From a virus (lineage: Duplodnaviria > Caudoviricetes), in the IMG/VR virus record IMGVR_UViG_3300043434_000561, positions 1-54,867 of that record: a stretch of DNA of 54,867 nucleotides. One strand, given 5' to 3'. Position 1 is the stretch's first letter. Every line of letters begins with the position of its first letter. Both the position numbers and the translations under genes were made by a program. Positions 2,944-47,021 of this stretch are shown one piece after another. Under the pieces are notes generated by a model. It had not been told where the DNA came from and made no database searches. It saw nothing but the letters and a program-made list of their open reading frames with translations.

Positions 2944-3035
2944 GGTTATCATTTTGCACCGAAGGGCTTTCAATGCAACCATCATCGTGGGTATAATGGT
3001 TTTGTTTTCAAACCATTCGGGTATTCTGGGCAACC
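2944..3035. promoter_or_regulatory. divergent immunity control region with four operators and a TATAAT -10
   Basis: Operators at 2944-2960, 2964-2980, 2998-3014 and 3019-3035; TATAAT at 2992-2997. Confidence 0.75.
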
Positions 3036-3061: not shown

Positions 3062-3418
3062 ATGAAGATTGAGACAGAGAAGGACGTAACCGGAGAGGCC
3101 GCCAAGTACCTGCGCGAGCAGTCCGGCCTTACGCAAAAGGTGTTTTGGTCGTCCATTGGGCTGACCCAATCAGGCGGGTGCCGGTACGAGAATGGCCAAT
3201 CCGTACCCAAGCCCGTCCGCATCTTGATTTTCGCCAACTACGTGGCGGGGTTCAAGATCGACGCCACCACACCCGATGGTGTCTGCGGCCTTCTGCGCCT
3301 GGCCAAGATCCAAGCCAGCCAGTCGGCTCAAGAGGCCGAAAAGATCGGGGCGAAGATGGCGGAGGCCATGAGCGCGGTGCGCCAAGTCAATAAGCTCTTG
3401 GCCAACATAAGCGGCTGA
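3062..3418 (+). CDS. Cro-position XRE HTH regulator, RsaL-like
   Basis: TQKVFWSSIGLTQSGGCRYENG resembles the RsaL-type XRE signature (FWSRxGxxQSxGSRyExG). Confidence 0.8.
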   Translation: MKIETEKDVTGEAAKYLREQSGLTQKVFWSSIGLTQSGGCRYENGQSVPKPVRILIFANYVAGFKIDATTPDGVCGLLRLAKIQASQSAQEAEKIGAKMAEAMSAVRQVNKLLANISG

Positions 3419-3450
3419 GCCTGTGAGAGAATTTCCCAACATTTTTTTAC

Positions 3451-3475
3451 ACCGCCTATTCCGGGCGGTTTTTTA
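3451..3475 (+). terminator. rho-independent terminator
   Basis: ACCGCC-TATTCCG-GGCGGT hairpin followed by a T-run. Confidence 0.65.
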
Positions 3476-3504
3476 ACGCGCAACGCGCAACCAAAGGAGA
3501 AGCC

Positions 3505-3945
3505 ATGCACTTACACGGACTTGCAAGACTCGGACGGGATATTGAACTGAGGGTGACACAAGACGGCACGCCCGTCGGTAATCTCGCCCTTGCTTTCAAC
3601 TATGGCCGCAAAGGCCAGGACGGCAAACGGCCAACGCAGTGGATCGACGCCTCGCTCTGGGGTGATCGGGTCGAGAAGCTCCAAAGCTACCTCGTCAAGG
3701 GTACGCAGATCAGCGTGATCCTGTCCGATCCGCACGTTGAAACCTACGAGAAAAAGGACGGCGGCACCGGCGTCAAGCTCGTGGCCCGGGTTGATGGTCT
3801 CGAGTTTGCATCCTCGCCAAGGGAAGCCGGCGAGCAGCGCTCTGCGGCAGGCGACTACCAGGCAGCCAGAGAAACCCGCGCACCGGCACCAAAGCCTGCG
3901 GCAAAGGCGGACTTTTCCGACCTCGACTCTGACATACCTTTTTAA
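3505..3945 (+). CDS. ssb: single-stranded DNA-binding protein
   Basis: OB-fold motifs (RLGRDIELR, WIDASLWG), acidic DSDIPF C-terminal tip, AAGGAG RBS. Confidence 0.95.
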   Translation: MHLHGLARLGRDIELRVTQDGTPVGNLALAFNYGRKGQDGKRPTQWIDASLWGDRVEKLQSYLVKGTQISVILSDPHVETYEKKDGGTGVKLVARVDGLEFASSPREAGEQRSAAGDYQAARETRAPAPKPAAKADFSDLDSDIPF

Positions 3946-32381: not shown

Positions 32382-35300
32382 GTGGCGAAAAATTCCTTCT
32401 TGCAGTCCCCGTTCGACAACATCACGCCTGCGGAGACGCTTCCAGGCCAGCAGACCCAAACGCCGCAAGAGCTACCGGAAATCCAGCAGACACCGGCTGC
32501 GGACACGCGCCAGCCCACCAAGGTCAACAACTTTCTGCCACCGGCAGACGTTCGGCCCATCTTCGAGGCGGCTGCCCAAGAGTTCGATGTTCCGGTCAAC
32601 GTGCTTATGGCGCTTGGCCACCAGGAGTCGCGCTACAACGCACAGGCCATTGGCCCGACAACCCAGTGGGGCCGCGCCAAGGGCATGATGCAATATCTCG
32701 ACAGCACCGCAAAGGGCATGGGCATTAACCCATTTGCTCCCGAGGAAGCTATCCCCGCCGCTGCCAAACAGATCCGCGAGCGCCTCGACAAGGGCTACTC
32801 GATGGAGGATGCCGTCAAGGAGCACTTTGCCGGGCCTGATCGCAAGCTGTGGGGGCCAAAAACCGACGCCTATGGCCGCGAGGTCATGCAAAAAGTCGGG
32901 ATGATTGGTGAAGCTCTTGGTACCGGAGAGGCCGGTGCGCCACAGCGCAACCTGCAAGCCGAATTGGATGCCGAGGAACCAGGCCGCTACCGCGTCATAA
33001 ACCCGGCTGACGACCGCCTTCTGTTCAGGCTGCAAGAGAATTTCGACGCCGAACAGATCGCCAAGAACGGGCTGCCGAAGCCGGAAGCCGCCAAAGCGCC
33101 GGAAGGGTTCATTGACCGCTCGAGCCAGGCTCTCAGCCGAGGCTACGACAACACGGTGCAAAACCTTGCGACGGCTCGCTTTGCCATTGGCGCCGGCGGT
33201 GACTCGGCTGAGCTCTCCGAAGCCCTGGCCAAGAAGTTTGCCGAAGAACAAAAGCGCACCAAGACAGCGGGCGAGAAAGAGATCGACGACGCTTTCCAGC
33301 GCGTCACGGACGCCAAGGGCGCATGGAACACAACCGTCGAGGGCTTGAAAGCCATTGGAACGGCGATCACGAACCCTGAAGATCTTGCCGTCGGAATCAT
33401 CGAGCAGACTCCCAACATGCTCCCCACTCTGGGCGCTGGTGCCGCAGGTGCCGGTGGCGGCGCTGCCGTCGGTGGCGTTATTGCCAATGTCCCGGGAGCA
33501 ATTACAGGCGCCATCATTGGTGGCCGCACCGGTATGGCGACAGGCACGACGGCAACCGAGCTTGGTGCCGAAGTCGAGCAGATGATCCTCGAGCGCCTGG
33601 GCGAAGCCAAGCAGGCTCCGACGGCTGCCAACATCAAGTCGCTTCTGGATGACAAGACGTTTCAATCCGAGGCTCTCGAGCGCGGATTGAAGAAGGGTTT
33701 GACGGTTGCTGCCGTCGATCAGATTTTCTTCGGCCTGACCGGGAAGGTGGCCGGGAAAGCGGCAACTGCGACGACAATCCCGAAGAAGATCGGCCTTGGC
33801 ACTGGGGCTGTCGCGCTCGATGCCACGGGTGAGGTTGCCGGTGAGGCAGCTTCGCAGAAGGTTGCACGAGGCGAGGTTGATGCCGGTGATGCGCTGCGCG
33901 AAGGCGTCTATGGCCTTGGCCAGTCCGTTGTCGAAACGGGTATCAGCGCTGCCGCACGCAGCGCCAAAGCCGCTGCCAACACTTTGCGCGGCGAGCCTGG
34001 TGCGCCTGCCCCCACATCCGACCCCACATCCACTCCACCAACCGCTACCGCACCGACGGCAACTCCGGCTCCTGCCGCCCCGGCTCCGCGCTCTGCCGCA
34101 TCCGGGCCGCTATCGCGCTCGATTGAGAACGCCGCCGAGAACAGCACTGCCGAGCAAGCACCGCCTCGTGTCACCGTCACGGCGCCGGAAGGTCAGATCA
34201 CCGGCTTCATGGAGTCGTACCAGGAGGACGGGCAGGGCGGTTTTGCCGCCCGCGTTCTGGGCGATGACGGCCAGGTGTACCAGTTCACCAGCGCCGATCA
34301 GGTTACGATTTCCCAGGAGCCAGCCGCGCCGCAGGCCGGTCCGCTGACGCAGGCGGTTGAAAAGGCCGCAGACGAGACAGTCGTTGCGCCCGTTCAGCCA
34401 GAGCCAACACAGACAGCACCGGCAGCACCGGCGGTTCAGATCGACAACAGCGCCGAGCGACTGGCCGAGATGACCGAGCCGCAACTCCGCGAGCGCCTCA
34501 AGTACATTGCCGACCAGGCCAAAGCCTCTGGCGGCTGGAACAAGCTGTTCGTGACTGAGCGCAAAAAAGTGGAGCGCGAGATCAACAGCCGCGCAAAGCC
34601 TGTCGAGCAAGCCGCCGATGTCATCCGCTTTAATGAGGGTAAACCCGAAGCCACCGCACTGCCAAAGGATTTGGCCGGAGCAAAGCCGCGTTACAGCTAC
34701 GGCAGCAAGCAATTCGACCTGACATTTGCCTCAGACTTTGACCGGGCCGCGTTCATCACCGCTCAGAAAGACCCGAGCTCGCGCAATGCCGACTATCTGA
34801 ACTTTGCCATGCAGGCGTCCGGTCTTAGCGAAGCCGAGGTGCGTGCCCATGGCCAGGCCGTAAAAGACGCCATCAAGTCGCAGGCCAAGGATGCCGAGCC
34901 CGGCACGCTGAACGTGCCAGAAATCGCTCGAGGCGCAGCCGCGCCAGAAGCGACGACGCAGGCCGAGCCTGCCCGCGACGAGCAAGCTGGCAAGTGGTTC
35001 GGCAGCCGCGAAAAGGCCGACGCCTACATTGCCAAGAAGAATATCAACGCAACGCACGAGATCGTGCAGACCGGCAAAGCACGTTTTGAAATTAAGCCCA
35101 AGGAGATCACCGATGGCAACAACCAACGTACCGTCGGGCAGCCCGATGGCGCAGAAGAAACACTCCAACAAGCCGATGCAGGACAAGCCCAGGGAGCCGC
35201 TGTTCAATCCGCTGTTGGACAGGATGAAGGACAAGCCGAAGTCGGCGTAACGTCCAATGTGGCCGAGCGCGAGAAACCTGAAACCCAAGAGGAACCGACC

Positions 35301-38300
35301 GATGGCACTCAAGCCACTCAAACCGAGCAAGCAGAAGCGCAAGGACAGGAAGCGCCTGCCAACACAAGCGTAACGCAAAGTCCGTTAAATCCTGAGTGGA
35401 ATCGCTTTACTTACAAAAGCGTTACGGTCGATTTTGCAACATCGCCAAACAACAAAGCTATTTCCGTTTACGACATAATTTCGTCAAGCCGCAGGTCTGG
35501 TGAAGCTAGAGAGGCTTTGCTCGAGCTAAAAAAGCGATACGAAACACTGCAAGCTGAGGGTGTGGTGGAGGATTCTGCCGAGGCAATCGCGTTCTGGCAG
35601 AGAATGTTAGACGAAGGCATAGCCGACAAGGCTGTGTTAACCGATGGCCGAACACTCGAGAAGGCACGTACACCCGCAGAGCTACAGCCAACTCAGACCG
35701 CCGCTGCCGTCAACGCACAATTTTCAAACAACAAGATCTTCACGGCCGACAAGGTTGAGGCCGCCCGCGCTCGCCTGAAATCCAAGCTGTCGCAGCTAAA
35801 CAGCGGAATCGACCCCGAGGTGATGATCGACGGCATGACGATTGCCGGAGCCTACATCGAGGGAGGCGTGCGCGAGTTCTCGGCATACGCCAAGGCGATG
35901 GTCGCGGACTTTGGCGACGCCATCAAGCCCTACCTGCTGTCGTTCTACGAGGGCGCCCGCAACTACCCTGGTTTGAACACGGAAGGCATGTCGAGCGTGG
36001 ATGACGCCAAGCGCATGCACTCCGGAATGATTACGCCTGCCGACACGCAGATCGAGGCAGTGGGCGAGATTGCCCAGAAGCCCGCCAAGCGCACCAAGAA
36101 AACCGGCGCGAAATCCGACATGACGCTGACCCAGGATTGGGGCGTCGATGCGATCAACGGATACAGCGACGACTACAACCGCGAGACCGGCAACACCGTC
36201 AAGGATGCTTTCCTCAAAGAGGCACGATCCTATCTGACCGCAGTAGCCGGTGTGCTGACAGAGCAGGGCTACACGCCTTACACGGACGCCAAGGGCCGAC
36301 CGGAAAAGATGGTGTCGGTCAACGAAAGCGGCATTGCCGGCAGTGGCGAGGTTACCCTGACTCTGGCCGGGCCCGATGGAATTGGCGCTTATGTCCACAT
36401 CTCCGAGTCCTCGCTTCGCGGTGTCGTGCCCACGACGCCAAGCGGCATTGCCATCATGTTCCGCGCTGCCAAGGAAGGCGACAAATTTGGTGGCAAAGGC
36501 CAGAACCGTTGGGCACCCGTTGACCTATCGGCAGCGGACCTCGCCGCGCTGGTAGATAAAACCGTCAAGGCAGAGGTGGCAAATGCCGCCAGACAGCCTA
36601 CAATCCCGCAAGGAGAACCGAGAAATGCAAACACTCCACAACCCGAAGGCGTACCCGCCGGAGATCCGCGAGGCGCTCAAGACAATGCCGCCGTTGGCGA
36701 TAGAAATCGCGAACAGATGGATCTTGGGCTGGCCGCAGGCGGTCAAGGAACTACTGAAAGCGGGCAGGTACCTGGAAGCGCTCAAGGCGCAGGAACGGGA
36801 GGAACGGGACGTGCTCAGCAGGCCGGGCAACAGCCACCTGGCGAGACACGAGATCGTGCAGGAGTACGGGCTGAGTCTGAGCCCACCGGAAGTGACACCG
36901 ACTTCGTAATCGACGCCGAGGACATCGGCAAAGGCGGTCTCACCAAAAAGTACCGCGACAACGTAGGCGCCATTCGCATCCTCAAGGCCATGGAAGCCGA
37001 GGGCAGGGTGGCGACCCCGGACGAGCGCAAGCAGCTTGCCAAGTATGTCGGATGGGGCGCCATGAAAGGCCCGTTCGACCCAGACAATAAGCAGTGGGCC
37101 AAGCAGCATGCCGAGCTCAAGGAGCTTTTAACGGACGCCGAATTTCGGGCCGCCCGCAAATCGACGCTTGACGCGCATTACACCAGCCCGATTGCCGTCG
37201 GCGCGATGTATGACGCCATGGCACGCCTGGGCTTTAACGGCGGTCGCGTGCTCGAGCCTTCCGTCGGTGTCGGCAACTTCTTTGGCCTGATGCCGGCCGC
37301 GATGCGCAATGCCTCGCAGCTTTTTGGTGTCGAGCTTGACTCGCTCACAAGCCGCATGGTGGCGGCGCTCTACCCCAAGGCCAACGTCGCCAAGGCCATC
37401 GGCTTTGAGGACTTCCAGATCCCGTCCGGCTATTTCGATGCCGTGATCGGCAATCCCCCCTTCGGCAGCCAGCCGCTTGTGGACTCCGAGCGCAGCCCGT
37501 ATTCGGGTTTCTCGATCCACAATTACTTCCTGGCCAAGGGCATCGACAAGCTGCGGCCAGGCGGCATCATGCAGGTTGTTGTGTCTCACAACTTCCTCGA
37601 TGCCAACGATGGACGCGCCCGCAAGTGGATCTCCGAGCGTGCCGACCTGATTGCAGGCGTGCGACTGCCCAACACGGCTTTCCAGGAAAACGCCGGAACG
37701 CAGGTTGTCACCGATATCTTGATCTTTCAAAAGCGCGAGCCTGGCGCAGCCGCCAAAAATTTATCGTGGGTCAATGTCGGCAACCAGACCAACACCAACC
37801 CCAAGACGGGCGAGACGGCCACTCACAAGGTCAATCAGTTCTTTATCGCCAATCCGCAGTTTGTCCTCGGCACCCCGTCGGCTGGCGGCACCATGTACAC
37901 AGCCAACGAGTACACGGTCGAGCCCAGTGGCGACTTGAAAGAGCAGCTTTCCGGGTGGGTCAAAACCATCCCTGAGAACGTCTATGCGCCGGTCGAGCGC
38001 AAGCCGGAAGCCATCACCGATATGGCCGTCCCGGACGGCATCAAGGTCGGATCGTTCTACGTGGACGCCAGCGGCGAGATCATGCAGCGCGGCGAAGATG
38101 TCATGGGCAACAAGACCACAAACCCATGGACCGCGCCAAACGCCAAAGCAGCCGAGCGCATGAAGGGCCTGATCGCTTTGCGCGAAGCCCTGCGCACGCA
38201 GATGCGCCTCGAGCGCTCGCTGGACTCGACGGAGGCCGCCATCGAGGCCAACCGGGCCGACTTGAACCGGCTCTATGACGCCTTCCTGAAAGCGCATGGC

Positions 38301-41300
38301 CACATCAACAGCCAGATGAACCGCAGGATCTTCCTCGACGATACGGAAGCCCAACTCGTTCAAGCGCTTGAGTTCGACTACGACAAGGGCATCAGCAAGG
38401 CCGTAGCCGAGCGTGAAGGCATCGAGCCCCGGGAGCCGAGCGCCACCAAGGCCGACATCTTCCAGCGCCGTGTCGCGTTCCCGCCGCAGGACTTTTTGAC
38501 CGTCAGCACCGCAAAAGACGCCTTGCTCGCCTCGTTGAACTATCGCGGCAAGGTGGACATGGCCTACATGGCCGAGGTCTACGGCAAGACCGACAAGGAG
38601 ATCTTCGACGAGCTCGGAGACGTTGTGTACGACGATCCGCTCTCGGGCATTGTGACGGCAGACGAGTATCTGTCGGGCGACGTTAAAACCAAGCTGGCCG
38701 AGGCGAAAGCCGCCGGAGCGAAATACCAGCGCAACGTCGAGGCGCTCGAGAAGGTCATCCCGGTAGACAAGAAGCCCTCCGAAATCTCGGTGAGCATCGG
38801 CGCGGCCTTTGTGCCGGCCGATGTCTATGAGCAGTTCGTCAAGCATATCTCGGGTGGCGAGGCCAAAGCGGCCTACGTGAAGGCGACCGGCCAGTGGGTC
38901 ATGTCGTTTACCGGCCAGACCGAGCCAGCGCTCAATGTCGGCAAGTTTGGCACCGATCAACTCTCGGCCCAGGATCTATTCCAGCTCAGCATGTTGGGCC
39001 GTGGCGCCGTGGTCAAGAAAACCATTCGCAATGCGGACGGTTCGACAACCACGATCCTCTTGGAAAAGGAAACCGAGGCCGCCCGCGAGAAGCAAAACGC
39101 CATTAAGGCCGAGTGGCAGTCCTGGCTTTGGAACGATGCAGCCCGCGCCGACCTGATCGCTTCGACCTACAACGACAAGATGAACCGGATTGTCGAGCGC
39201 AAGTATGACGGCTCGCACATGACGTTCCCAGGCATGAACCAGGCCATCAAGCTGTTGGAGCACCAGAAGAACGGTGTTTGGCGTGGGTTGCAGTCCTACC
39301 AGGTTCTCTACGATCACGTGGTTGGCGCCGGTAAGACCTTCGAGATGGCGACCCTCGCCATGGAGATGCGCCGCTTAGGCATTGCCCGCAAGCCTGTATT
39401 TGTGGTGCCGAACCACCTGACCCTGCAATGGCGCAGCGAGTTCACGCGCCTGTATCCGGGCTCCAACGTCCTGGCCGCAACGCCGGAGGATTTCTCCAAG
39501 GACAACCGCGAGCGCCTGTTCTCCAAGATCATCACCGGCGACTGGGATGCTGTCGTGATCGGCCATTCCTCGCTTAAGAAGATCGGCCTGCCGGAGGCAA
39601 CCGAGAAGGCTGTGCTGCAAGAGCAGATCGACGAGGTTGCTGCGGCCATCGAGGACATGAAGCGCCAGCGCGGCGACCGCAATATCATCCGCGATATGGA
39701 GGGCATCAGATCCCGGCTTGAAGCCCGGATGAAGGAGAAGCTCTCGGCTATCGGCAAGCGCTCGAAGGTCGTGACCTTCGATGAGCTCGGCCTCGATGCC
39801 ATGTTTGTGGACGAGATGCACGAGTTCAAAAACCTGTCCTACAACTCGACGATGGACCGCAACCCAGGCATGGGCAACCCGAACGGATCGGCCAAGGCTT
39901 TCGACCTGTTCGTAAAGGTCCGTTGGCTGTTCGACACCTTTGGCGAAAAGACGCCATTCATCACGGCGACCGGCACGCCAGTCTCGAATTCGCTGGTCGA
40001 GATGTACAACATGCAGCGCTACATGCAGTACCCAACCCTCAAGCGCGAGGGCCTGCATGTGTTCGATGCCTGGGCCAAACAGTTTGGCAGCGTCGAGAAC
40101 GTCTACGAGGTTGCGCCTTCCGGCAGCGGCTACCGCCAATCGACCCGGTTTGCCAAGTTCACCAACCTGCCGGGATTGATGAGCCTTTATAACTCCTTTG
40201 CCGACACGATCACGCTGGACGATCTCAAGGCTCAGGAAGAAGCCCAGGGCAAACGCTTTCCGGTTCCCAAAATGGTTGGCGGAAAGCCCCAGATCGTCGT
40301 GGCACAGCGTTCGCCTGCCGTCTCGAACCTGATGGGCGTTCCTACGGCCGAGACCGACGAAGCCGGAAATATCAAGTTCCTGGCCGATTTGAACGGCCAA
40401 ATCCTGATCGAGCAGAAGCCCGACACCGGCAAGTGGACCGCCAAGGTGGGCGAGTCTTATCTCGGGGAGTTTGAGACCGAGCAGGACGCCCGCATGAAGA
40501 TCGTCGAGCGGGCTGTGACGCCAGAGGTCAAGGTCGATCCCGAGTCGATCCTGGGCCGCTTTGGACGCCTGCGCGAGCTCACCAAGGAAACCAAGGGCAA
40601 GGTCAACGCCTTGTCGCTAACGGGCGAGGCCAACAAGGCCGGTCTCGACTATCGCCTGGTCAACCCTGCCGCGCCTGACTTCCCTGGCTCGAAGATCAAC
40701 CTGGCCGTGGATAACATGGTCCGGATTTACAAGCAGTGGGCCGGCGACAAGGGCACCCAACTGGTGTTCTGCGACCTGTCGATTCCGCTGTCTGCCCGCG
40801 CCAGCTATTCCAGCAAGGCCCGTCGCCTGTATGTGCGTGACGATGCCGGTTCGCTTGAGATGAAGCGCGGCACCATGCACACGCTCGAGGGGCAGGAGAG
40901 CCTGCCGTACTTCGTGGTGCAGCGGGGCGAGAAAGACCTCAAGCGGTTTGACGTTTACGACGCCGCCTCGGGCCGCCTGGTGGGCCGCGACTTCCGCGCC
41001 AAGCAAGATGCCATCGACGACGCCAACGCCAGGTTGGCCGACGAGAACCGCCGCCAGGCCTGGATCAACCAGCGCGAAACCGCTGGCGAGATCACGCAGG
41101 AAGCAATCGACGAGTACAACAACGACAACGACATCGAGGCCGACGGCATCGAGGCGTTTACCCGCGAGGACATTGCGGGCGTGTCGGGCGCCGCAAAATT
41201 CTCGGTCTACGATGACATCAAGGCCAAGCTGATCGCCAAGGGCATCCCCGAGCGCGAGATCGCTTTTATTCACGACTATTCGACACCCGCCGCCAAGGAC

Positions 41301-44300
41301 AAGCTATTCAAGGCCGTCAATTCCGGCGAGATCCGCTTCCTCTTGGGCTCCACTCCCAAAATGGGAGCCGGTACGAACGTCCAGAAGCGCCTGGTTGGCC
41401 TGCATCACATCGATGCGCCCTGGCGTCCAAGCGATCTTGAGCAGCGCGAAGGCCGGATCATTCGCCGCGGCAACGAGCTCTACGAGCGCAACCCCGACGG
41501 GTTTGAAGTGTTCATTGGCCGCTATGCTACTGAACAGACCTACGACACCCGCCGCTGGCAGATCCTCGAGCACAAGGCCCGTGGCATCGAGCAGCTTCGA
41601 AACTTCGACGGCTCAATTAACGAGATCGACGACATCGAGGGCGAGGCCGCCAACGCAGCCGACATGAAGGCGGCCGCTTCCGGCGATCCGCTGATCCTCG
41701 AGGAAACCCGCCTCAAGAACGACGTGCGCCGCCTCGAGCAGTTGCAGGCCGCTCACGCCGATGACGTTCTGGCCATGAACCGCAAGGCCAAGAGCGCCGA
41801 CGAATACGCCAAGGTCTCGGGTCCGCGCCAGTTGAAAGAGGTTAATGAGCTGATCGAGACGGTCAAAAAGAACCCCCTCGACAAGGAAGGGTTTGCACCC
41901 ATTACCGTGGACGGCAAGAAGTTTGCCGACAAGGAGAGCGCCCAGAAGGAAATCTTCGATGCGATGTCGCTGGTCCGGTCCAATCTGCGCCGCGAAGCAT
42001 CGATTGTTTACCGTGGCATCGAGTTCAATCTCTCGATTGGCTACGGAACGACGGTTGTTGCCGACTCTCCCACCGGAAACATCGGAACGTGGACCGCAGC
42101 CGAACCATTCTCGTCGAGCGGCTTTGTGCAGCGGATGGCCAACTACGCCAACCGCCTTCCATCGATGGCCGATAGCGTCAAGGACAACATCGAGAAATCC
42201 GCCCGTGACGCGGTAGCGCTGCGCGAGCAGGCCAAGGCTCCCTTCCAGCAAGCCGCAGATCTTGAAGCCACCCGCGAGGAATACAAGAAAGTGCAGCGTG
42301 CGCTCTTGGCCAAGGGTCCGGCAGTGCCGGAAAGCCAAAAGCCTGCGGTTGCCGCCGGTATCCAGGCCCAGAAGGCAAGGCTCGAGGCTCTCGGCTTTGG
42401 CGAGCAGCTCCGCGAGTTCTTCGACAACACCGAGGGCGAGGTTCGCTACTCGGTGCGAGACGACGGCTTGACCGAGGCTGAGTTTGGCCCGGTTTACACT
42501 GGACTTGACACTCCGGCAGCGATTGACCGCCTGATGGGCAATCAGTCGGGCGAGGCGATTGTCTCCCGTCCCGACCTTGGCGAGATCAGCTTGGTCTACG
42601 GCAACGGTAATGCCGGGTTGAAACACATCACCGCCCGCCATGGAAACGACATTCTGAACCGCCTGCCTGACCTTCTCGCCAACGGCAAGGTCTACACCAA
42701 GGACGGCCAGGCAAACCGGGTCTTTATTGGCAACGAGCGCGACGAGGCCGTGATTCGCCTCGACTGGAACGGCCAGGCTAAGACCTGGCTCCTGTCGGCT
42801 TACGAGAAATACCCCAACCTGAAAGCAGGGCAGGGGGCCGAAGTCTCCCGCCGTTCGCAGACAGTGGCCGAGCGCACGTCGGCTGGCTTGACGGCGGCAG
42901 GCGCCCGCCAGGCCGTGACGACCGGCATTGTCGGCCCCGTCATTAGCCGCCTGATCGACAACGGAAGTATCGTGCTGCACCAAACCACCAAGACCCTGCC
43001 GAAGGGAATTGGCGGCAACGTGCGCGGCATCCAAGCTGTCACGACACCAGACGGCAAGGTTCACCTGGTCGCCAGTGCCGTGACCCAACAGACGGCCCGC
43101 GCCGTTATGCTGCACGAGATGTTCCACAAGGGCGGCGAGCGACTGATCGGTTCGGTCGAGTGGAGCAAGCTCATGGGCCGCCTCGGCACACTCTACCGCC
43201 AGAGCGAGCAATCGACCGGACGCGCCCGTGAATTCTTTGACCGGGCCAGAGCCCGCGTGGCAGCCGCCAAGCGTCAGGGTGCCGTTGCGACCCGCATGGA
43301 GGTTGAGGAATTCGCAGCCTACGCCATCGAGGAATACGAGCGTGCGCCTCAAAGCCTGCCCGCTGCGATCCGCAAATGGGTTGAGGACTTAATCGGGCTG
43401 GTCAAGTCCTGGATGGTCAAGAGCTACGGCAAGCAGCTTGGCCAAGTGACGCCGGCGCAGTTGGCAGCCTTCGCCAAGTTCGCCGTCATGGACATGGCCG
43501 CCGAAAGGCGAAAGGAGATGTTTGGCCCGGTCGGGATGATGTTCTCCGCTGCCGATCCGATCAATTCTCCGGCCTTCAAGCGCTGGTTTGGTAAATCGAA
43601 GGTGGTGGACGCCAATGGCAAGCCGCTTGTGGTTTATCACGGCAGCCCGAGCGAGTTTTACAAGTTCGACCCCTATGCCTCAATGGACGGCGGCTTCTAC
43701 TTCACAGGAGACCGACGCCTTGCAGAGTCGTTTTCCAAGGACGAAGCCGGCGAGCGCATTACCCTGCATGAGGTGTACCTGAGTCTACAGAACCCCAAGA
43801 CAATTGACCTGCGCGGCGAGCAGCAGCCAGACCAAGACGCCATGCGCTCCATGTTTGAGCAGGCCAAGTCGGATGGGCATGACGGAGTTGTGTTGCTCAA
43901 TGTGCGCGAGTTTAACGGCACTGGAACGCAATACGTCGCCTTCCGCCCCGAGCAGATCAAATCCGCCATCGGCAACGACGGCAGCTTTGACCCGACGAAC
44001 CCAGACATTCGCTATTCGGTGAGCCCTGAGCAGGCCGACGCCATGATCGACGAGGCAAGCAAGGCGCTCGACGAGACCGGCCCGGCTGCCAAGGAGGACT
44101 ATATCGGGCGCGTGGTGGGCGACATGTCCCTGGGTGCCCGCCTGATTGTGCATCCAAGAACGGTTGCCGCTGTTCACCCGGAGTTCACGCCGGTCTACCG
44201 CACCGCCATCTCGCAGATGGAAACCCGTGACGAGATCATTGCGGACCTAGGCAAAGACGTAACGGCCTACCACCAGCTTCCGCAGGCCAGCAAAGAGAAT

Positions 44301-47021
44301 GTCAACAAGGCGCTTGAGCTTGGACGCCTGACCTCGACGGTGTTCTCGAAAGAGGCGCTGGCCGGTGGCGTGACCAATACCGGCACGCGCAAGGTTGTCG
44401 TCATTGACGAGAAAGGCAAACCGAAAACCGCAGAGGTTCCGGTCAATGCGCTTCTGTCCGTCAAAGGCGAGATTATCAAGCTCACCGACGCAGAGATCGC
44501 CGCATACCAAGACCTGCGCTCGATGTTTGATCGTGCTCTGGACCTGATGCGCGACCAGACGCTCGAGGAACTGGGCTTTGCCGAGTTCATCAATCAGCCA
44601 AACGCCGCCAAGGCGATCCGTGAGCTAATTACCGACCAGACCCCGGCCGACCAGGCCGAACGGCTGAGCAACATCGCAAGCTTTGTCGCTGAGATCGAGC
44701 AGGCCAAGCGGGCCGGATATGTGCCGTTTGCCCGGTATGGCGATTACGTCGTAACGGTCAAAGAGAAGATTGCCGATCTCGAGTACGCCGAGGACAGCGC
44801 CTCTCACCTGATCGTGACGAACGCGCCCGAGTCGTTTGCCGATGAAATGCTGTCTCTCGGTGCCGAGCAGACCAAAGAGGGATGGCGGATCAAGAAGTCT
44901 CAAAAGAAGGACGTTGAGCGCCTGACCGAGCAGACCGTCTATTCCGCCAAGGTCGAAACCGGCCTCACGGACTTCATGGCCGAGCGACGCGCTCAGAACG
45001 TGGACGACATTCCGGCCGTCAAGGCAGCGATTGAAAAGGCCCGCACCGAGCATGTCGGGAATAACCCTCGCCGTCGGATCGTAGCCTTTAAGACCCGCGA
45101 GAAGAAGGCAGACACCCAGGTTCGGCTCTCCGATGTCGATGCCTTGGCCGAGGTGGCCTCGATTGACAACGCGACGTGGGATGCCGTTCGCGACAAGCTG
45201 GCCGACGCCATCAAGGCCCGCAGCTTCCGCAAGCACTTCTTTCATTCCGACAACGTGCCCGGATACACCGGAGACTTTGAGCGATCGATCTCGGACTACG
45301 TGATCGGCATGGCCGGCTACCTTTCGCGCCGCCAGCACATGAAGCGGTGGGATAACACGGTGTCGGCGGTTGAGGCAAAGCCCAAGCTGTTCCAGTACGC
45401 CTCGAAATACCGGGAGTATGTGAACAACCCGCAGGAAGAACTGGCGATGGTGCGCCAGATCGGTTTCTTCTCGTACATCGCCGGTGTCATGGCCACGGCC
45501 TTTGCCAACCTGACGCAGGTGCCGCTCATGACGGTGCCGACCCTTTCTCAGGTTGCCCCGGTCCCGCTGGTCGTCAAGGAAACCGTCAGGGCGTACAAAG
45601 ACGCCATCGCCATGTTGGGCAAGCCGTCTCGCGTTGGGCTCGATATGTTCGATCCCAACAAGGCTCCGGCAGACGTGCGCGAGGCTCTGAAAGAGGCCTG
45701 GGCCGAAGGGGCTTTCGTTCCGCTCGAAACCTTCGACCTGATGATGACGGCCCGGCAGCGCAACGTCGGTACTCGAAAAGGCGTCAAGGCGTTCAACACG
45801 GCAACCCAGGTTGTCGCGGTGGCCTTCACGTTTGCCGAGCGCATGAACCGCCTGGTGACGTTCATCGCGGCCGCACGCCTGGCCGATAAGCGGGCTGTCC
45901 GGGAGAGTGCAACCAAGACCCTTGGCGGCGATGCGCTTGCCCGCCAGACGGTCCTGGGACGCAACTGGACGCCGAAAAACTTTGCCGAATGGGCCATTGA
46001 CGAGTCGCAATACCGCATGGGCAAGGCCAACCGCCCGACCATGATGCGTGGCGTCGGCTCCGCCATCATGCAGTTTAAGGGCTTCATGCTTCAGACCTTT
46101 GAAGCCTGGTACCGCATGACGGCCCTGCATGGTCGCTCCGGCAAGTTTGCGGCGGCATCCTCGATCATGGCCCTTTACGCAATGGCCGGTCTTTGGGGAT
46201 TGCCTGGTGCGGAGGATCTTCGCAAGCTGCTCGAGGCGATCTACAAGCAGATCACCAAGAAGGATCTCGATCTCAAGACCGAGCTTCGCGCCTGGATTGC
46301 CAGAACGTCGGGCAGCAACGCCATCGGGCAGATCGTCTCCAAGGGCGTGAGCTACCCGCTTGGCGTGGACATGACGCGGGTTGGTATGGGCAATGTGGTG
46401 CCGGATTCGCCACTCGCCGCAGCCGGTATCCCGTTCGATATGCTGATCGGCCGCCCGACACGAGCGTTTGAGAAGGGGTCGTCCGGGGATTACGCGGGAG
46501 CCGTGGCGGAGTTTACGCCAAACTTCATGAAGAACATGATCGTGTCCGGTGGCTGGAAGGTTGATGGCGTCAGGGACAAGCAGGGCAACCGCATCCTTGC
46601 GCCGGAGGACTTATCGGGGGCCGACCTGGCCATGCGGGCAACCGGCTTCCAGCCGTCGATTGTGACGGACGTGCGCGATTATGAGTACGCGCAGCGCCGC
46701 CAGGAGACAGCCGTTGACGGGTTGAAGCGCAGCTACACCAACAAGATCGCCAAAACCATTGCCGAGATGGATCGGACTGAAGATCCCGAGAAGCTCAGGG
46801 AGCTCGATCAGCGCCTCGACGAAATCTATGCCGACATCGACGAGCACAACGCCAAGGCCGATCCCGAGCAGGTTATCAAGATCGGCGTGCGGGCGATCCG
46901 CAACCGCGTGGCGCGTGAAATGGAAGGCGTTAAATCGACGTGGGGCCAGGAGCGCAAGGCTGCCAGGGGCTCGGCTGAGGAACTGCGCGGCGTGTTCGGG
47001 CTAGATGAGGACGATGAGTAG
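32382..47021 (+). CDS. giant DarB-like polyvalent virion protein (SLT, N6-adenine MTase, SNF2 helicase, RNase-like, HExxH peptidase, ART-like, PLxRFG)
   Basis: HQESRYN/GMMQ (SLT); VLEPSVGVGNF and NPPF (MTase); HVVGAGKT, DEMH, PWRPSDLEQREGR (SF2); GLKHITARH..WLLSAY; LHEMFH; VYHGS..FYFT; YVPFARYG. Confidence 0.92.
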   Translation: MAKNSFLQSPFDNITPAETLPGQQTQTPQELPEIQQTPAADTRQPTKVNNFLPPADVRPIFEAAAQEFDVPVNVLMALGHQESRYNAQAIGPTTQWGRAKGMMQYLDSTAKGMGINPFAPEEAIPAAAKQIRERLDKGYSMEDAVKEHFAGPDRKLWGPKTDAYGREVMQKVGMIGEALGTGEAGAPQRNLQAELDAEEPGRYRVINPADDRLLFRLQENFDAEQIAKNGLPKPEAAKAPEGFIDRSSQALSRGYDNTVQNLATARFAIGAGGDSAELSEALAKKFAEEQKRTKTAGEKEIDDAFQRVTDAKGAWNTTVEGLKAIGTAITNPEDLAVGIIEQTPNMLPTLGAGAAGAGGGAAVGGVIANVPGAITGAIIGGRTGMATGTTATELGAEVEQMILERLGEAKQAPTAANIKSLLDDKTFQSEALERGLKKGLTVAAVDQIFFGLTGKVAGKAATATTIPKKIGLGTGAVALDATGEVAGEAASQKVARGEVDAGDALREGVYGLGQSVVETGISAAARSAKAAANTLRGEPGAPAPTSDPTSTPPTATAPTATPAPAAPAPRSAASGPLSRSIENAAENSTAEQAPPRVTVTAPEGQITGFMESYQEDGQGGFAARVLGDDGQVYQFTSADQVTISQEPAAPQAGPLTQAVEKAADETVVAPVQPEPTQTAPAAPAVQIDNSAERLAEMTEPQLRERLKYIADQAKASGGWNKLFVTERKKVEREINSRAKPVEQAADVIRFNEGKPEATALPKDLAGAKPRYSYGSKQFDLTFASDFDRAAFITAQKDPSSRNADYLNFAMQASGLSEAEVRAHGQAVKDAIKSQAKDAEPGTLNVPEIARGAAAPEATTQAEPARDEQAGKWFGSREKADAYIAKKNINATHEIVQTGKARFEIKPKEITDGNNQRTVGQPDGAEETLQQADAGQAQGAAVQSAVGQDEGQAEVGVTSNVAEREKPETQEEPTDGTQATQTEQAEAQGQEAPANTSVTQSPLNPEWNRFTYKSVTVDFATSPNNKAISVYDIISSSRRSGEAREALLELKKRYETLQAEGVVEDSAEAIAFWQRMLDEGIADKAVLTDGRTLEKARTPAELQPTQTAAAVNAQFSNNKIFTADKVEAARARLKSKLSQLNSGIDPEVMIDGMTIAGAYIEGGVREFSAYAKAMVADFGDAIKPYLLSFYEGARNYPGLNTEGMSSVDDAKRMHSGMITPADTQIEAVGEIAQKPAKRTKKTGAKSDMTLTQDWGVDAINGYSDDYNRETGNTVKDAFLKEARSYLTAVAGVLTEQGYTPYTDAKGRPEKMVSVNESGIAGSGEVTLTLAGPDGIGAYVHISESSLRGVVPTTPSGIAIMFRAAKEGDKFGGKGQNRWAPVDLSAADLAALVDKTVKAEVANAARQPTIPQGEPRNANTPQPEGVPAGDPRGAQDNAAVGDRNREQMDLGLAAGGQGTTESGQVPGSAQGAGTGGTGRAQQAGQQPPGETRDRAGVRAESEPTGSDTDFVIDAEDIGKGGLTKKYRDNVGAIRILKAMEAEGRVATPDERKQLAKYVGWGAMKGPFDPDNKQWAKQHAELKELLTDAEFRAARKSTLDAHYTSPIAVGAMYDAMARLGFNGGRVLEPSVGVGNFFGLMPAAMRNASQLFGVELDSLTSRMVAALYPKANVAKAIGFEDFQIPSGYFDAVIGNPPFGSQPLVDSERSPYSGFSIHNYFLAKGIDKLRPGGIMQVVVSHNFLDANDGRARKWISERADLIAGVRLPNTAFQENAGTQVVTDILIFQKREPGAAAKNLSWVNVGNQTNTNPKTGETATHKVNQFFIANPQFVLGTPSAGGTMYTANEYTVEPSGDLKEQLSGWVKTIPENVYAPVERKPEAITDMAVPDGIKVGSFYVDASGEIMQRGEDVMGNKTTNPWTAPNAKAAERMKGLIALREALRTQMRLERSLDSTEAAIEANRADLNRLYDAFLKAHGHINSQMNRRIFLDDTEAQLVQALEFDYDKGISKAVAEREGIEPREPSATKADIFQRRVAFPPQDFLTVSTAKDALLASLNYRGKVDMAYMAEVYGKTDKEIFDELGDVVYDDPLSGIVTADEYLSGDVKTKLAEAKAAGAKYQRNVEALEKVIPVDKKPSEISVSIGAAFVPADVYEQFVKHISGGEAKAAYVKATGQWVMSFTGQTEPALNVGKFGTDQLSAQDLFQLSMLGRGAVVKKTIRNADGSTTTILLEKETEAAREKQNAIKAEWQSWLWNDAARADLIASTYNDKMNRIVERKYDGSHMTFPGMNQAIKLLEHQKNGVWRGLQSYQVLYDHVVGAGKTFEMATLAMEMRRLGIARKPVFVVPNHLTLQWRSEFTRLYPGSNVLAATPEDFSKDNRERLFSKIITGDWDAVVIGHSSLKKIGLPEATEKAVLQEQIDEVAAAIEDMKRQRGDRNIIRDMEGIRSRLEARMKEKLSAIGKRSKVVTFDELGLDAMFVDEMHEFKNLSYNSTMDRNPGMGNPNGSAKAFDLFVKVRWLFDTFGEKTPFITATGTPVSNSLVEMYNMQRYMQYPTLKREGLHVFDAWAKQFGSVENVYEVAPSGSGYRQSTRFAKFTNLPGLMSLYNSFADTITLDDLKAQEEAQGKRFPVPKMVGGKPQIVVAQRSPAVSNLMGVPTAETDEAGNIKFLADLNGQILIEQKPDTGKWTAKVGESYLGEFETEQDARMKIVERAVTPEVKVDPESILGRFGRLRELTKETKGKVNALSLTGEANKAGLDYRLVNPAAPDFPGSKINLAVDNMVRIYKQWAGDKGTQLVFCDLSIPLSARASYSSKARRLYVRDDAGSLEMKRGTMHTLEGQESLPYFVVQRGEKDLKRFDVYDAASGRLVGRDFRAKQDAIDDANARLADENRRQAWINQRETAGEITQEAIDEYNNDNDIEADGIEAFTREDIAGVSGAAKFSVYDDIKAKLIAKGIPEREIAFIHDYSTPAAKDKLFKAVNSGEIRFLLGSTPKMGAGTNVQKRLVGLHHIDAPWRPSDLEQREGRIIRRGNELYERNPDGFEVFIGRYATEQTYDTRRWQILEHKARGIEQLRNFDGSINEIDDIEGEAANAADMKAAASGDPLILEETRLKNDVRRLEQLQAAHADDVLAMNRKAKSADEYAKVSGPRQLKEVNELIETVKKNPLDKEGFAPITVDGKKFADKESAQKEIFDAMSLVRSNLRREASIVYRGIEFNLSIGYGTTVVADSPTGNIGTWTAAEPFSSSGFVQRMANYANRLPSMADSVKDNIEKSARDAVALREQAKAPFQQAADLEATREEYKKVQRALLAKGPAVPESQKPAVAAGIQAQKARLEALGFGEQLREFFDNTEGEVRYSVRDDGLTEAEFGPVYTGLDTPAAIDRLMGNQSGEAIVSRPDLGEISLVYGNGNAGLKHITARHGNDILNRLPDLLANGKVYTKDGQANRVFIGNERDEAVIRLDWNGQAKTWLLSAYEKYPNLKAGQGAEVSRRSQTVAERTSAGLTAAGARQAVTTGIVGPVISRLIDNGSIVLHQTTKTLPKGIGGNVRGIQAVTTPDGKVHLVASAVTQQTARAVMLHEMFHKGGERLIGSVEWSKLMGRLGTLYRQSEQSTGRAREFFDRARARVAAAKRQGAVATRMEVEEFAAYAIEEYERAPQSLPAAIRKWVEDLIGLVKSWMVKSYGKQLGQVTPAQLAAFAKFAVMDMAAERRKEMFGPVGMMFSAADPINSPAFKRWFGKSKVVDANGKPLVVYHGSPSEFYKFDPYASMDGGFYFTGDRRLAESFSKDEAGERITLHEVYLSLQNPKTIDLRGEQQPDQDAMRSMFEQAKSDGHDGVVLLNVREFNGTGTQYVAFRPEQIKSAIGNDGSFDPTNPDIRYSVSPEQADAMIDEASKALDETGPAAKEDYIGRVVGDMSLGARLIVHPRTVAAVHPEFTPVYRTAISQMETRDEIIADLGKDVTAYHQLPQASKENVNKALELGRLTSTVFSKEALAGGVTNTGTRKVVVIDEKGKPKTAEVPVNALLSVKGEIIKLTDAEIAAYQDLRSMFDRALDLMRDQTLEELGFAEFINQPNAAKAIRELITDQTPADQAERLSNIASFVAEIEQAKRAGYVPFARYGDYVVTVKEKIADLEYAEDSASHLIVTNAPESFADEMLSLGAEQTKEGWRIKKSQKKDVERLTEQTVYSAKVETGLTDFMAERRAQNVDDIPAVKAAIEKARTEHVGNNPRRRIVAFKTREKKADTQVRLSDVDALAEVASIDNATWDAVRDKLADAIKARSFRKHFFHSDNVPGYTGDFERSISDYVIGMAGYLSRRQHMKRWDNTVSAVEAKPKLFQYASKYREYVNNPQEELAMVRQIGFFSYIAGVMATAFANLTQVPLMTVPTLSQVAPVPLVVKETVRAYKDAIAMLGKPSRVGLDMFDPNKAPADVREALKEAWAEGAFVPLETFDLMMTARQRNVGTRKGVKAFNTATQVVAVAFTFAERMNRLVTFIAAARLADKRAVRESATKTLGGDALARQTVLGRNWTPKNFAEWAIDESQYRMGKANRPTMMRGVGSAIMQFKGFMLQTFEAWYRMTALHGRSGKFAAASSIMALYAMAGLWGLPGAEDLRKLLEAIYKQITKKDLDLKTELRAWIARTSGSNAIGQIVSKGVSYPLGVDMTRVGMGNVVPDSPLAAAGIPFDMLIGRPTRAFEKGSSGDYAGAVAEFTPNFMKNMIVSGGWKVDGVRDKQGNRILAPEDLSGADLAMRATGFQPSIVTDVRDYEYAQRRQETAVDGLKRSYTNKIAKTIAEMDRTEDPEKLRELDQRLDEIYADIDEHNAKADPEQVIKIGVRAIRNRVAREMEGVKSTWGQERKAARGSAEELRGVFGLDEDDE
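35113..35250 (+). CDS. nested +1-frame ORF A (45 aa)
   Basis: AAGGAG RBS; MATTNVPSGSPMAQKKHSNKPMQDKPREPLFNPLLDRMKDKPKSA. Confidence 0.5.
   Translation: MATTNVPSGSPMAQKKHSNKPMQDKPREPLFNPLLDRMKDKPKSA
35302..35373 (+). CDS. nested +1-frame ORF B (23 aa, very basic)
   Basis: GAGGA RBS; MALKPLKPSKQKRKDRKRLPTQA. Confidence 0.4.
   Translation: MALKPLKPSKQKRKDRKRLPTQA
36625..36909 (+). CDS. nested +1-frame ORF C (94 aa, globular)
   Basis: AAGGAG RBS (alternative in-frame start at 36583 with GAGGTG); G/C-ending codons in the nested frame; protein-like composition AIEIANRWILGWP. Confidence 0.72.
   Translation: MQTLHNPKAYPPEIREALKTMPPLAIEIANRWILGWPQAVKELLKAGRYLEALKAQEREERDVLSRPGNSHLARHEIVQEYGLSLSPPEVTPTS

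Follow-up and report, generated by a model that had tools for sequence, protein, structure and literature searches.

The DNA analysed here is a 54,867-bp IMG/VR virus record (IMGVR_UViG_3300043434_000561; Duplodnaviria, Caudoviricetes) with an estimated completeness of ~90%, referred to at its full length as the window. Its genes include terminase-like, portal, major head, internal-virion and endolysin genes. The portal, major head and internal virion protein genes lie 5′ of a giant gene (32382..47021, + strand, as are all window features given below; 4879 codons), which encodes a putative DarB-like polyvalent virion protein, as assigned by its Pfam domains and by phrog_10089. The Pfam domains were SLT (giant residues 61–138), N6_Mtase/Eco57I (1623–1807), ResIII (2304–2450), Helicase_C of an SNF2-type helicase (2954–3030), the nuclease-like PBECR1 (3395–3476, window 42564–42809) and the ADP-ribosyltransferase ART-PolyVal (3743–3869, window 43608–43988). 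PBECR1 and ART-PolyVal domains 3′ of the helicase are typical of polyvalent proteins. With an N6-methyltransferase (MTase) and an SF2/SNF2 helicase predicted in one giant polypeptide, encoded within the phage structural module, the gene is of the DarB-like type. The MTase part of the module, 790 amino acids (aa) up to the helicase, occupies 36912..39281. Directly 5′ of it, a small open reading frame (ORF) lies nested in the +1 frame of the giant gene, in DNA that the giant frame reads as an inter-domain linker, and the same arrangement was found ahead of the MTase module in other phages and in plasmids. The segment of the giant protein immediately 5′ of the nested ORF matched phrog_10089, 'DarB-like antirestriction', at E 4.4e-65.

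Read from its first ATG, the nested ORF extends over 36583..36909 (108 aa), entirely within the giant gene. A second ATG at 36625 gives a 94-aa peptide (MQTLHNPKAY...), and the stretch 36625..36909, of 94 codons plus TAA, is taken here as the gene of a predicted five-helix protein, the family of which is termed A. The TAA at 36907–36909 lies 37 nucleotides (nt) 5′ of the KKYRDN codons, and the MTase part begins just past it. A preliminary description of the window, made from the letters alone, had the ORF stop about 40 nt before the start of the module, which agrees with this distance, and had given an end coordinate of 36960, which is 51 nt beyond the real TAA. Searches for homologues returned 78 proteins at E ≤ 0.001 among 107 candidates, almost all of 89–95 aa and called as separate small genes in metagenomes.

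The same description had pointed to two in-frame starts, each linked to a ribosome-binding site. Both ATGs do have Shine-Dalgarno (SD)-like cores, with a purine-rich GAGG 6 nt 5′ of ATG 36583 and AAGGAG (36610..36615) 9 nt 5′ of ATG 36625, but conservation was found for the second ATG only. The possible 14-codon N-terminal extension (36583..36624) that the upstream ATG would add was not kept in the homologues: one of the 27 aligned with the window protein (P0016) had an extension, and its sequence was unlike that of the window. M1 and Q2 were invariant in all 28 aligned proteins. At the level of DNA, 31 loci were compared (27 from IMG/VR, two plasmids, Pseudomonas phage 8P and the window). The aligned first position was ATG in 29 of these; locus L026 has GTG, and the match in L027 begins at residue 8. 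GGAG, GAGG or AGGA was present at −18..−5 in 55 of 68 distinct homologous start regions, compared with 494 of 4556 control windows (11%) taken inside the MTase coding sequence. Judged from these sequence patterns, the nested ORF has its own translation start, with a start codon and a putative ribosome-binding site.

A +1 ORF that is closed by a stop codon could also be read through a programmed +1 ribosomal frameshift, which would yield a truncated N-terminal protein ending in the helical domain. We consider this very improbable in view of the invariant ATG and M1–Q2 and of the SD core in 55 of 68 start regions. Moreover, the nested frame opens 69 nt before the ATG in the window and 6 to >500 nt before it elsewhere, with no conserved sequence, and free-standing copies of the gene start at the equivalent ATG. 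Two further arrangements were rejected. The first was termination-reinitiation yielding a separate MTase protein, for which no conserved giant-frame start codon was present near the nested stop. The second was an in-frame domain displaced by two frameshifts. An exhaustive profile search returned 119 cluster representatives, with matches mostly beginning at or near residue 1, and the domain was absent from large proteins among them. The matched proteins were all of ≤264 aa, bar one 2809-aa repeat protein (P0114), and since all real matches are small, family A is never an in-frame domain of a large protein. P0114 itself is a giant protein of ~8 repeat units with an 'R..LGWP' motif, matches family A over 22 residues only, and is probably unrelated to it.

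Composition distinguishes the two frames clearly. Codons ending in T make up 2% of the nested frame and 14% of the whole giant ORF, bearing out the near-absence noticed at first sight. Over 36626–36909, the GC contents at the three codon positions (GC1/2/3) were 0.63/0.44/0.80 in the nested frame, whereas the identical bases read in the giant frame gave 0.81/0.63/0.44. The entire giant ORF has values of 0.63/0.44/0.75, i.e. the signature of the nested frame, and the shift in signature is unique to the nested stretch across the 14.6-kb gene. In the giant frame, the nested DNA (36588..36911, giant residues ~1403–1510) is read as a low-complexity Gly/Ala/Gln/Pro linker (G 19%, A 13%, Q 11%, P 10%), with hydrophobic residues at 10% compared with 27% in the whole giant protein. 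Because the nested frame carries an ordinary codon signature while the linker frame appears derived and is of low complexity, these patterns fit a small-gene frame that is the older of the two, with the linker frame overprinted on it.

Selection on the two frames was compared using NG86 ratios of nonsynonymous to synonymous substitution rates (dN/dS) for 24 non-redundant loci, in 275 pairs with <97% nucleotide identity. Amino-acid identity was greater in the nested frame than in the giant frame in every one of the 275 pairs (means 0.56 and 0.37, respectively). The nested frame had a median dN/dS of 0.39, the giant frame one of 1.48. In the MTase region, used as a control, the relationship was reversed, with dN/dS of 0.175 in the giant frame and 1.42 in the +1 frame (273 codons, 169 pairs). 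It is the protein of the nested frame that is under purifying selection, and the flip in selection between frames provides a clean internal control.

Alternative-frame ORFs are common at 60% GC, so that a non-functional relic, or a frame left open by chance in GC-rich DNA, had to be considered. This explanation is hardly credible here. Conservation of the nested frame extends to homologues of only 38% identity, with substitutions that are conservative, and dN/dS reverses between the frames. Low-GC plasmids of Campylobacter and Clostridium also have long +1 ORFs in this position, and lengths of 119–165 codons are unexpected there by chance. On the combined evidence of composition, homologues, selection, start site, predicted fold and selection on free-standing copies, the nested ORF is very probably a real overlapping gene and not a product of chance.

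The giant frame is also maintained. Over the overlap, no giant-frame stop was present in any of 32 nested loci, and T at the nested third position was never observed before AA, AG or GA (0/753), compared with 148/2031 before other dinucleotides. Pooled third bases were T 4.6% and G 55.9% in the nested frame, against T 10.5% and G 36.9% in the MTase frame; the richness in G at nested third positions leads to GNN codons (Gly, Ala, Glu, Asp, Val) in the linker. When the codons of the nested gene were re-drawn synonymously from local codon usage (2000 trials per locus), the giant frame stayed open in only 78 trials for the window; for six other loci the number ranged from 18 to 769. The stretch is dual-coding: one frame encodes a structured protein, the other a flexible linker.

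The family A product was modelled with AlphaFold2 from a 28-row alignment, with a predicted local distance difference test score (pLDDT) of 88.4, a predicted template modelling score (pTM) of 0.79 and five helices. The model describes a small four- to five-helix protein, predicted to be neutral to acidic. The 94-aa nested globular protein of the preliminary description is thus upheld by the +1 ORF, by this model and by purifying selection on the nested frame. Foldseek searches of PDB and BFVD with the model gave no match at E ≤ 0.001, and the best VIA match had a Z of 4.6. Nothing significant was returned by Pfam and PHROGs for the window protein, and a PDB profile search with family A gave AlpA (7xya_G) at a non-significant E of 0.14. 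The ESM Atlas search returned unnamed small-protein clusters only.

In all 31 loci, the small ORF was found inside a very large ORF on the same strand and in an identical relative frame. Across the phage loci, the giant-frame domains 5′ of the nested ORF were of at least four unrelated types. The search was also made in reverse, from the MTase N-terminus (IGKGGLTKKYRDN..YVGWGA), which was kept in all phage loci aligned; it covered the best 80 of 326 viral relatives, 79 of them with ≥700 nt of upstream sequence. A +1 nested ORF stood directly 5′ of the MTase module in 79/79 of these phage loci, with 39 belonging to family A and 40 to a second family, B, which came from phages with the MTase module but without a family A match. 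Family calls were made with two local hidden Markov models (HMMs) at E ≤ 1e-3, and of the forward frames only +1 gave matches. Both frames were open over the overlap in 31/31 and 79/79 loci. The family B consensus begins MNLxNWISQAREHWKE..., and the proteins are acidic, with a median isoelectric point (pI) of 4.7.

Unannotated +1 linker ORFs (all + strand) were located in Erwinia phage PEp14 (L057:1130–1444), Pseudomonas phage Itty13 (L058:1124–1444), Burkholderia phage Bcep22 (L059:1127–1447) and Agrobacterium phage Atu_ph08 (L060:611–916). In these four phages, giant-frame GC3 falls across the linker ORF, which precedes the MTase domain of a DarB-like gene. Pfam TnpV was the best match, below threshold, for three of the four ORFs, with an E of 0.045 for that in Bcep22 gp75. 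The overlap layout travels with the MTase module whatever domain stands upstream. Tight linkage to the MTase/SNF2 module was observed in 79/79 phage loci, with homologues in plasmids too. As a separate observation, one Rubrivivax-binned phage contig (L010/L032/L097) has a giant-frame stop at L010 6752, ~440 nt past the nested ORF and inside the MTase domain, which may reflect a split gene, a pseudogene or an assembly error.

TnpV (PF14198), named after a small ORF of the Clostridium transposon Tn4451, offered a link between family B and plasmid genes. Of 16 family B members, 15 matched the TnpV model at E ≤ 1, the best (3.9e-5) lying under the 27-bit gathering cut-off; the family B ORF of phage L141 scored 32.5 bits, above the cut-off. 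Families A and B were aligned by hhalign in one register in three runs (P 3.6e-4, 2e-3 and 6.7e-4), though with probabilities of just 37%, 14% and 27%. The order of predicted helices agrees, being 23–35, 37–45, 49–65 and 74–81 in family A and 3–17, 19–27, 31–51 and 56–68 in family B. We think it probable that the two families share ancestry. The best structural match of the family B model, 2apl_A (Z 7.2, root-mean-square deviation 4.0 over 75 residues), is below the level that is meaningful for helical proteins. Like TnpV, the proteins of both families are small (about 90–120 aa), helical and carried on mobile elements, here as nested ORFs. Family A differs in having an extra N-terminal segment and motifs of its own, EIANRWxLGWP and HLARHE, and the accessible text of two papers describes TnpV as a transposon gene that stands free rather than nested (PMC3158075, PMC9815147).

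The plasmid carriers include pCDC5900 of C. botulinum, in which a 118-aa +1 ORF (L142:1228–1581, + strand) lies in an SNF2-related gene, 5′ of its MTase domain. This ORF matches TnpV from end to end (91 bits, E 6e-26). Relatives of it were found by tblastn in 14 plasmid records. In nine of these they fall within genes of SNF2 or helicase type and in one within a 'pentapeptide repeat' gene; in two more the relative is annotated as TnpV, and the last two records are unannotated. A C. perfringens plasmid has a +1 nested ORF in a helicase gene (L147, about 2501–2776, + strand). In a Campylobacter jejuni plasmid, the +1 frame is open over 165 codons in the equivalent place (nested ORF at L144:1510–1983, + strand), and the family A HMM matched it at E 2.3e-4 in a small search. 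The MTase N-terminus occurs in 1327 plasmid records, a handful of which were inspected as loci, and tblastn found family A in only two and family B in only one.

As it is found in plasmid SNF2/MTase genes and behind at least four unrelated upstream domains, the overlap belongs to the history of the module and predates the fusion in the window phage. The small gene had initially been proposed to be a free-standing gene engulfed when the module fused into an ejection protein. The composition does fit an older small gene, but the proposal is not supported as worded, for the nesting occurs also in plasmid genes that are not ejection proteins. In two plasmids, pACP4.3 (Acidovorax) and NZ_CP026547 (Cupriavidus), the small ORF is annotated, and the N-6 methylase gene is called as beginning only downstream of it. 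Yet a conserved MQLDLFGAT... start lies ~400 nt 5′ of the small ORF, and the methylase frame is open from there on (stretches concerned in the two plasmids: L003 4568–5594 / L055 84–1110; L002 1323–2241); the large gene was probably truncated in annotation.

The nested gene keeps a fixed position immediately 5′ of the MTase domain while the parts upstream shuffle, and for this reason we favour an accessory role, in which the nested protein would be a partner of the MTase/SNF2 module encoded in cis. We would give this almost, though not quite, an even chance. The nested protein would be translated from the giant mRNA in the +1 frame, at its own SD sequence and ATG. A small protein would then be made beside the emerging MTase domain, where it could assist or restrain the MTase/SNF2 module. 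Possible roles are in assembly, in keeping the MTase inactive in the producer cell, or in DNA targeting. Nesting in the leader of the module would ensure that domain shuffling never separates the pair, so that co-inheritance would be guaranteed. The DarB protein of phage P1 needs separate Dar proteins for packaging. Complex prediction for the nested protein with the 790-aa MTase part gave a score of 0.29 (mark, 0.32).

The free-standing copies also bear on this role. Among 24 loci in contigs of bacterial genomes, 12 were nested in large ORFs, 11 were not nested, and one (L054, at a contig end and with X in its translation) was ambiguous. The 11 non-nested loci consist of eight intact small ORFs, seven of which form one clade with L033 apart, and three that are truncated or lack a start (L043, L046 and L052). 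Free-standing family A copies in betaproteobacterial contigs from metagenome-assembled genomes are at L035 643, L036 6001, L038 4511, L039 6001, L040 4269, L041 3261 and L042 6001. In the intact eight, the giant frame is almost open (no stops in six, one stop in two), G at third positions is raised (47%) and T at third positions has climbed to 10%. The near-open giant frame and the raised third-base G suggest, by sequence signature, that these copies escaped fairly recently from the nested state. Free-standing homologues had been anticipated directly upstream of MTase genes; free-standing copies do exist, but none of those found adjoins an MTase gene.

Several results weigh against the nested protein being a dedicated partner of the module, or against parts of the argument leading to it. 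Among the sequencing runs checked, no RNA run was listed with the nested stretch. The TnpV model did not match the window ORF at E ≤ 10, and it detected 0 of 25 family A members. The MTase/SNF2 gene of Streptococcus element L061 has no nested ORF, and those of a Ti plasmid and a Vibrio plasmid start ~200 nt before the MTase N-terminus, without an upstream linker. No MTase or other part of the giant protein was found within 6 kb of the 11 non-nested loci. The intact free-standing copies have a median dN/dS of 0.13 (28 pairs), and selection of this strength implies that the protein works without the module. One free-standing gene annotated as TnpV has conjugation genes around it, and no MTase is listed within 5 kb of it.

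These last results are expected if the nested gene is real and has an independent function, such as Xis- or helix-turn-helix (HTH)-like DNA binding or anti-defence, and merely occupies an unconstrained linker of a highly expressed gene. Besides the copies far from any MTase and the strong purifying selection on them, free-standing TnpV genes in conjugative elements accord with such a function, and TnpV of Tn4451, a free-standing ORF, has been postulated to be Xis-like (PMC3158075). Weak and non-significant HTH signals were also obtained, from AlpA as noted above and from sigma region-4 chains (Z ~3), and family B is acidic. Against this, the position directly 5′ of the MTase domain is constant in 79/79 loci, despite the presence of other linkers in 14-kb genes, and distant plasmid genes keep the same position. 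We regard an independent function as a credible explanation of less than even likelihood, and say the same of its corollary, that the MTase linkage is historical hitch-hiking.

A broader form of the accessory reading is that TnpV-like proteins, including family A, are an ancient and obligatory cis-encoded subunit or regulator of the N6-MTase/SNF2 anti-restriction module. We hold this to be rather unlikely. If it were true, a +1 nested gene would have been retained in the module leader across Pseudomonadota, Campylobacterota and Bacillota, and would be among the most widespread conserved out-of-frame overlaps in double-stranded DNA (dsDNA) mobile elements. Free-standing copies, both the TnpV genes of Tn4451-type elements and those of family A, would then be escapes from nesting. 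TnpV genes are also carried by mobilisable elements that insert specifically into snf2 genes of integrative and conjugative elements (ICEs) of Streptococcus suis (PMC9815147), and descent of this TnpV from a nested copy is a possibility.

Small genes nested out of frame on the same strand, with a start of their own, are known as such. Examples are comS of Bacillus subtilis, which lies within srfAB, and Rz1 of phage lambda, which lies within Rz and whose product forms a complex with that of Rz. The arrangement described here differs from both in that the host frame yields no more than a disordered linker between domains, the codon signature of the nested frame is the normal one, and the overlapping pair spans phages and plasmids of several phyla. 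Here an out-of-frame nested gene is conserved across the polyvalent MTase/SNF2 genes of phages and plasmids and linked to the orphan TnpV family. The nested layout was not found described in the literature on polyvalent proteins, phage 8P or TnpV/SNF2, supplementary files not being covered, and a word search of the polyvalent-protein paper PMC5512222 found neither 'overlapping' nor 'frameshift' nor 'linker'. In Bcep22-like podoviruses, giant proteins of the DarB-like kind are reported to belong to the virion, and gp69 of JC1 was detected in virions by mass spectrometry, with 51 peptides (PMC9144972). The host gene of the window is like them in matching phrog_10089 and in carrying SLT, N6-MTase and helicase domains; the nested gene is absent from their published descriptions, so far as these are given in the available text of PMC9144972.

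The gene is a rare case in dsDNA phages and plasmids of a long, fully nested out-of-frame gene with comparative support from many lineages. The orphan TnpV family, together with its probable new sister family, gains a genomic home in the anti-restriction MTase/SNF2 module. The overlap also exposes a blind spot of annotation, where gene callers either miss the small gene or retain it and truncate the MTase gene. Bcep22-like, PEp14-like and Itty13-like phages, which are studied for therapy and biocontrol, carry an unrecognised gene of this kind.

Two minor observations concern the surroundings of the free-standing copies and of the giant gene. In L038, L039 and L042, the small ORF directly follows a conserved gene for a 334-aa signal-peptide/membrane protein; this gene is partial in L035, L036 and L041, had no match in L040, and shows a weak match to a phrog annotated 'DNA ejection protein'. 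The possibility that this neighbour is a piece of the giant protein was rejected (BLASTP E 0.55). Convergent primase genes, of DUF927/Toprim or PriCT_2/AAA_25 type, were seen in L042 and L039 only. Within the giant gene, window 35022–35682 has a giant-frame GC3 of just 0.51 with normal GC1 and GC2 and no convincing ORF in an alternative frame, and may be a recently acquired, AT-richer segment.

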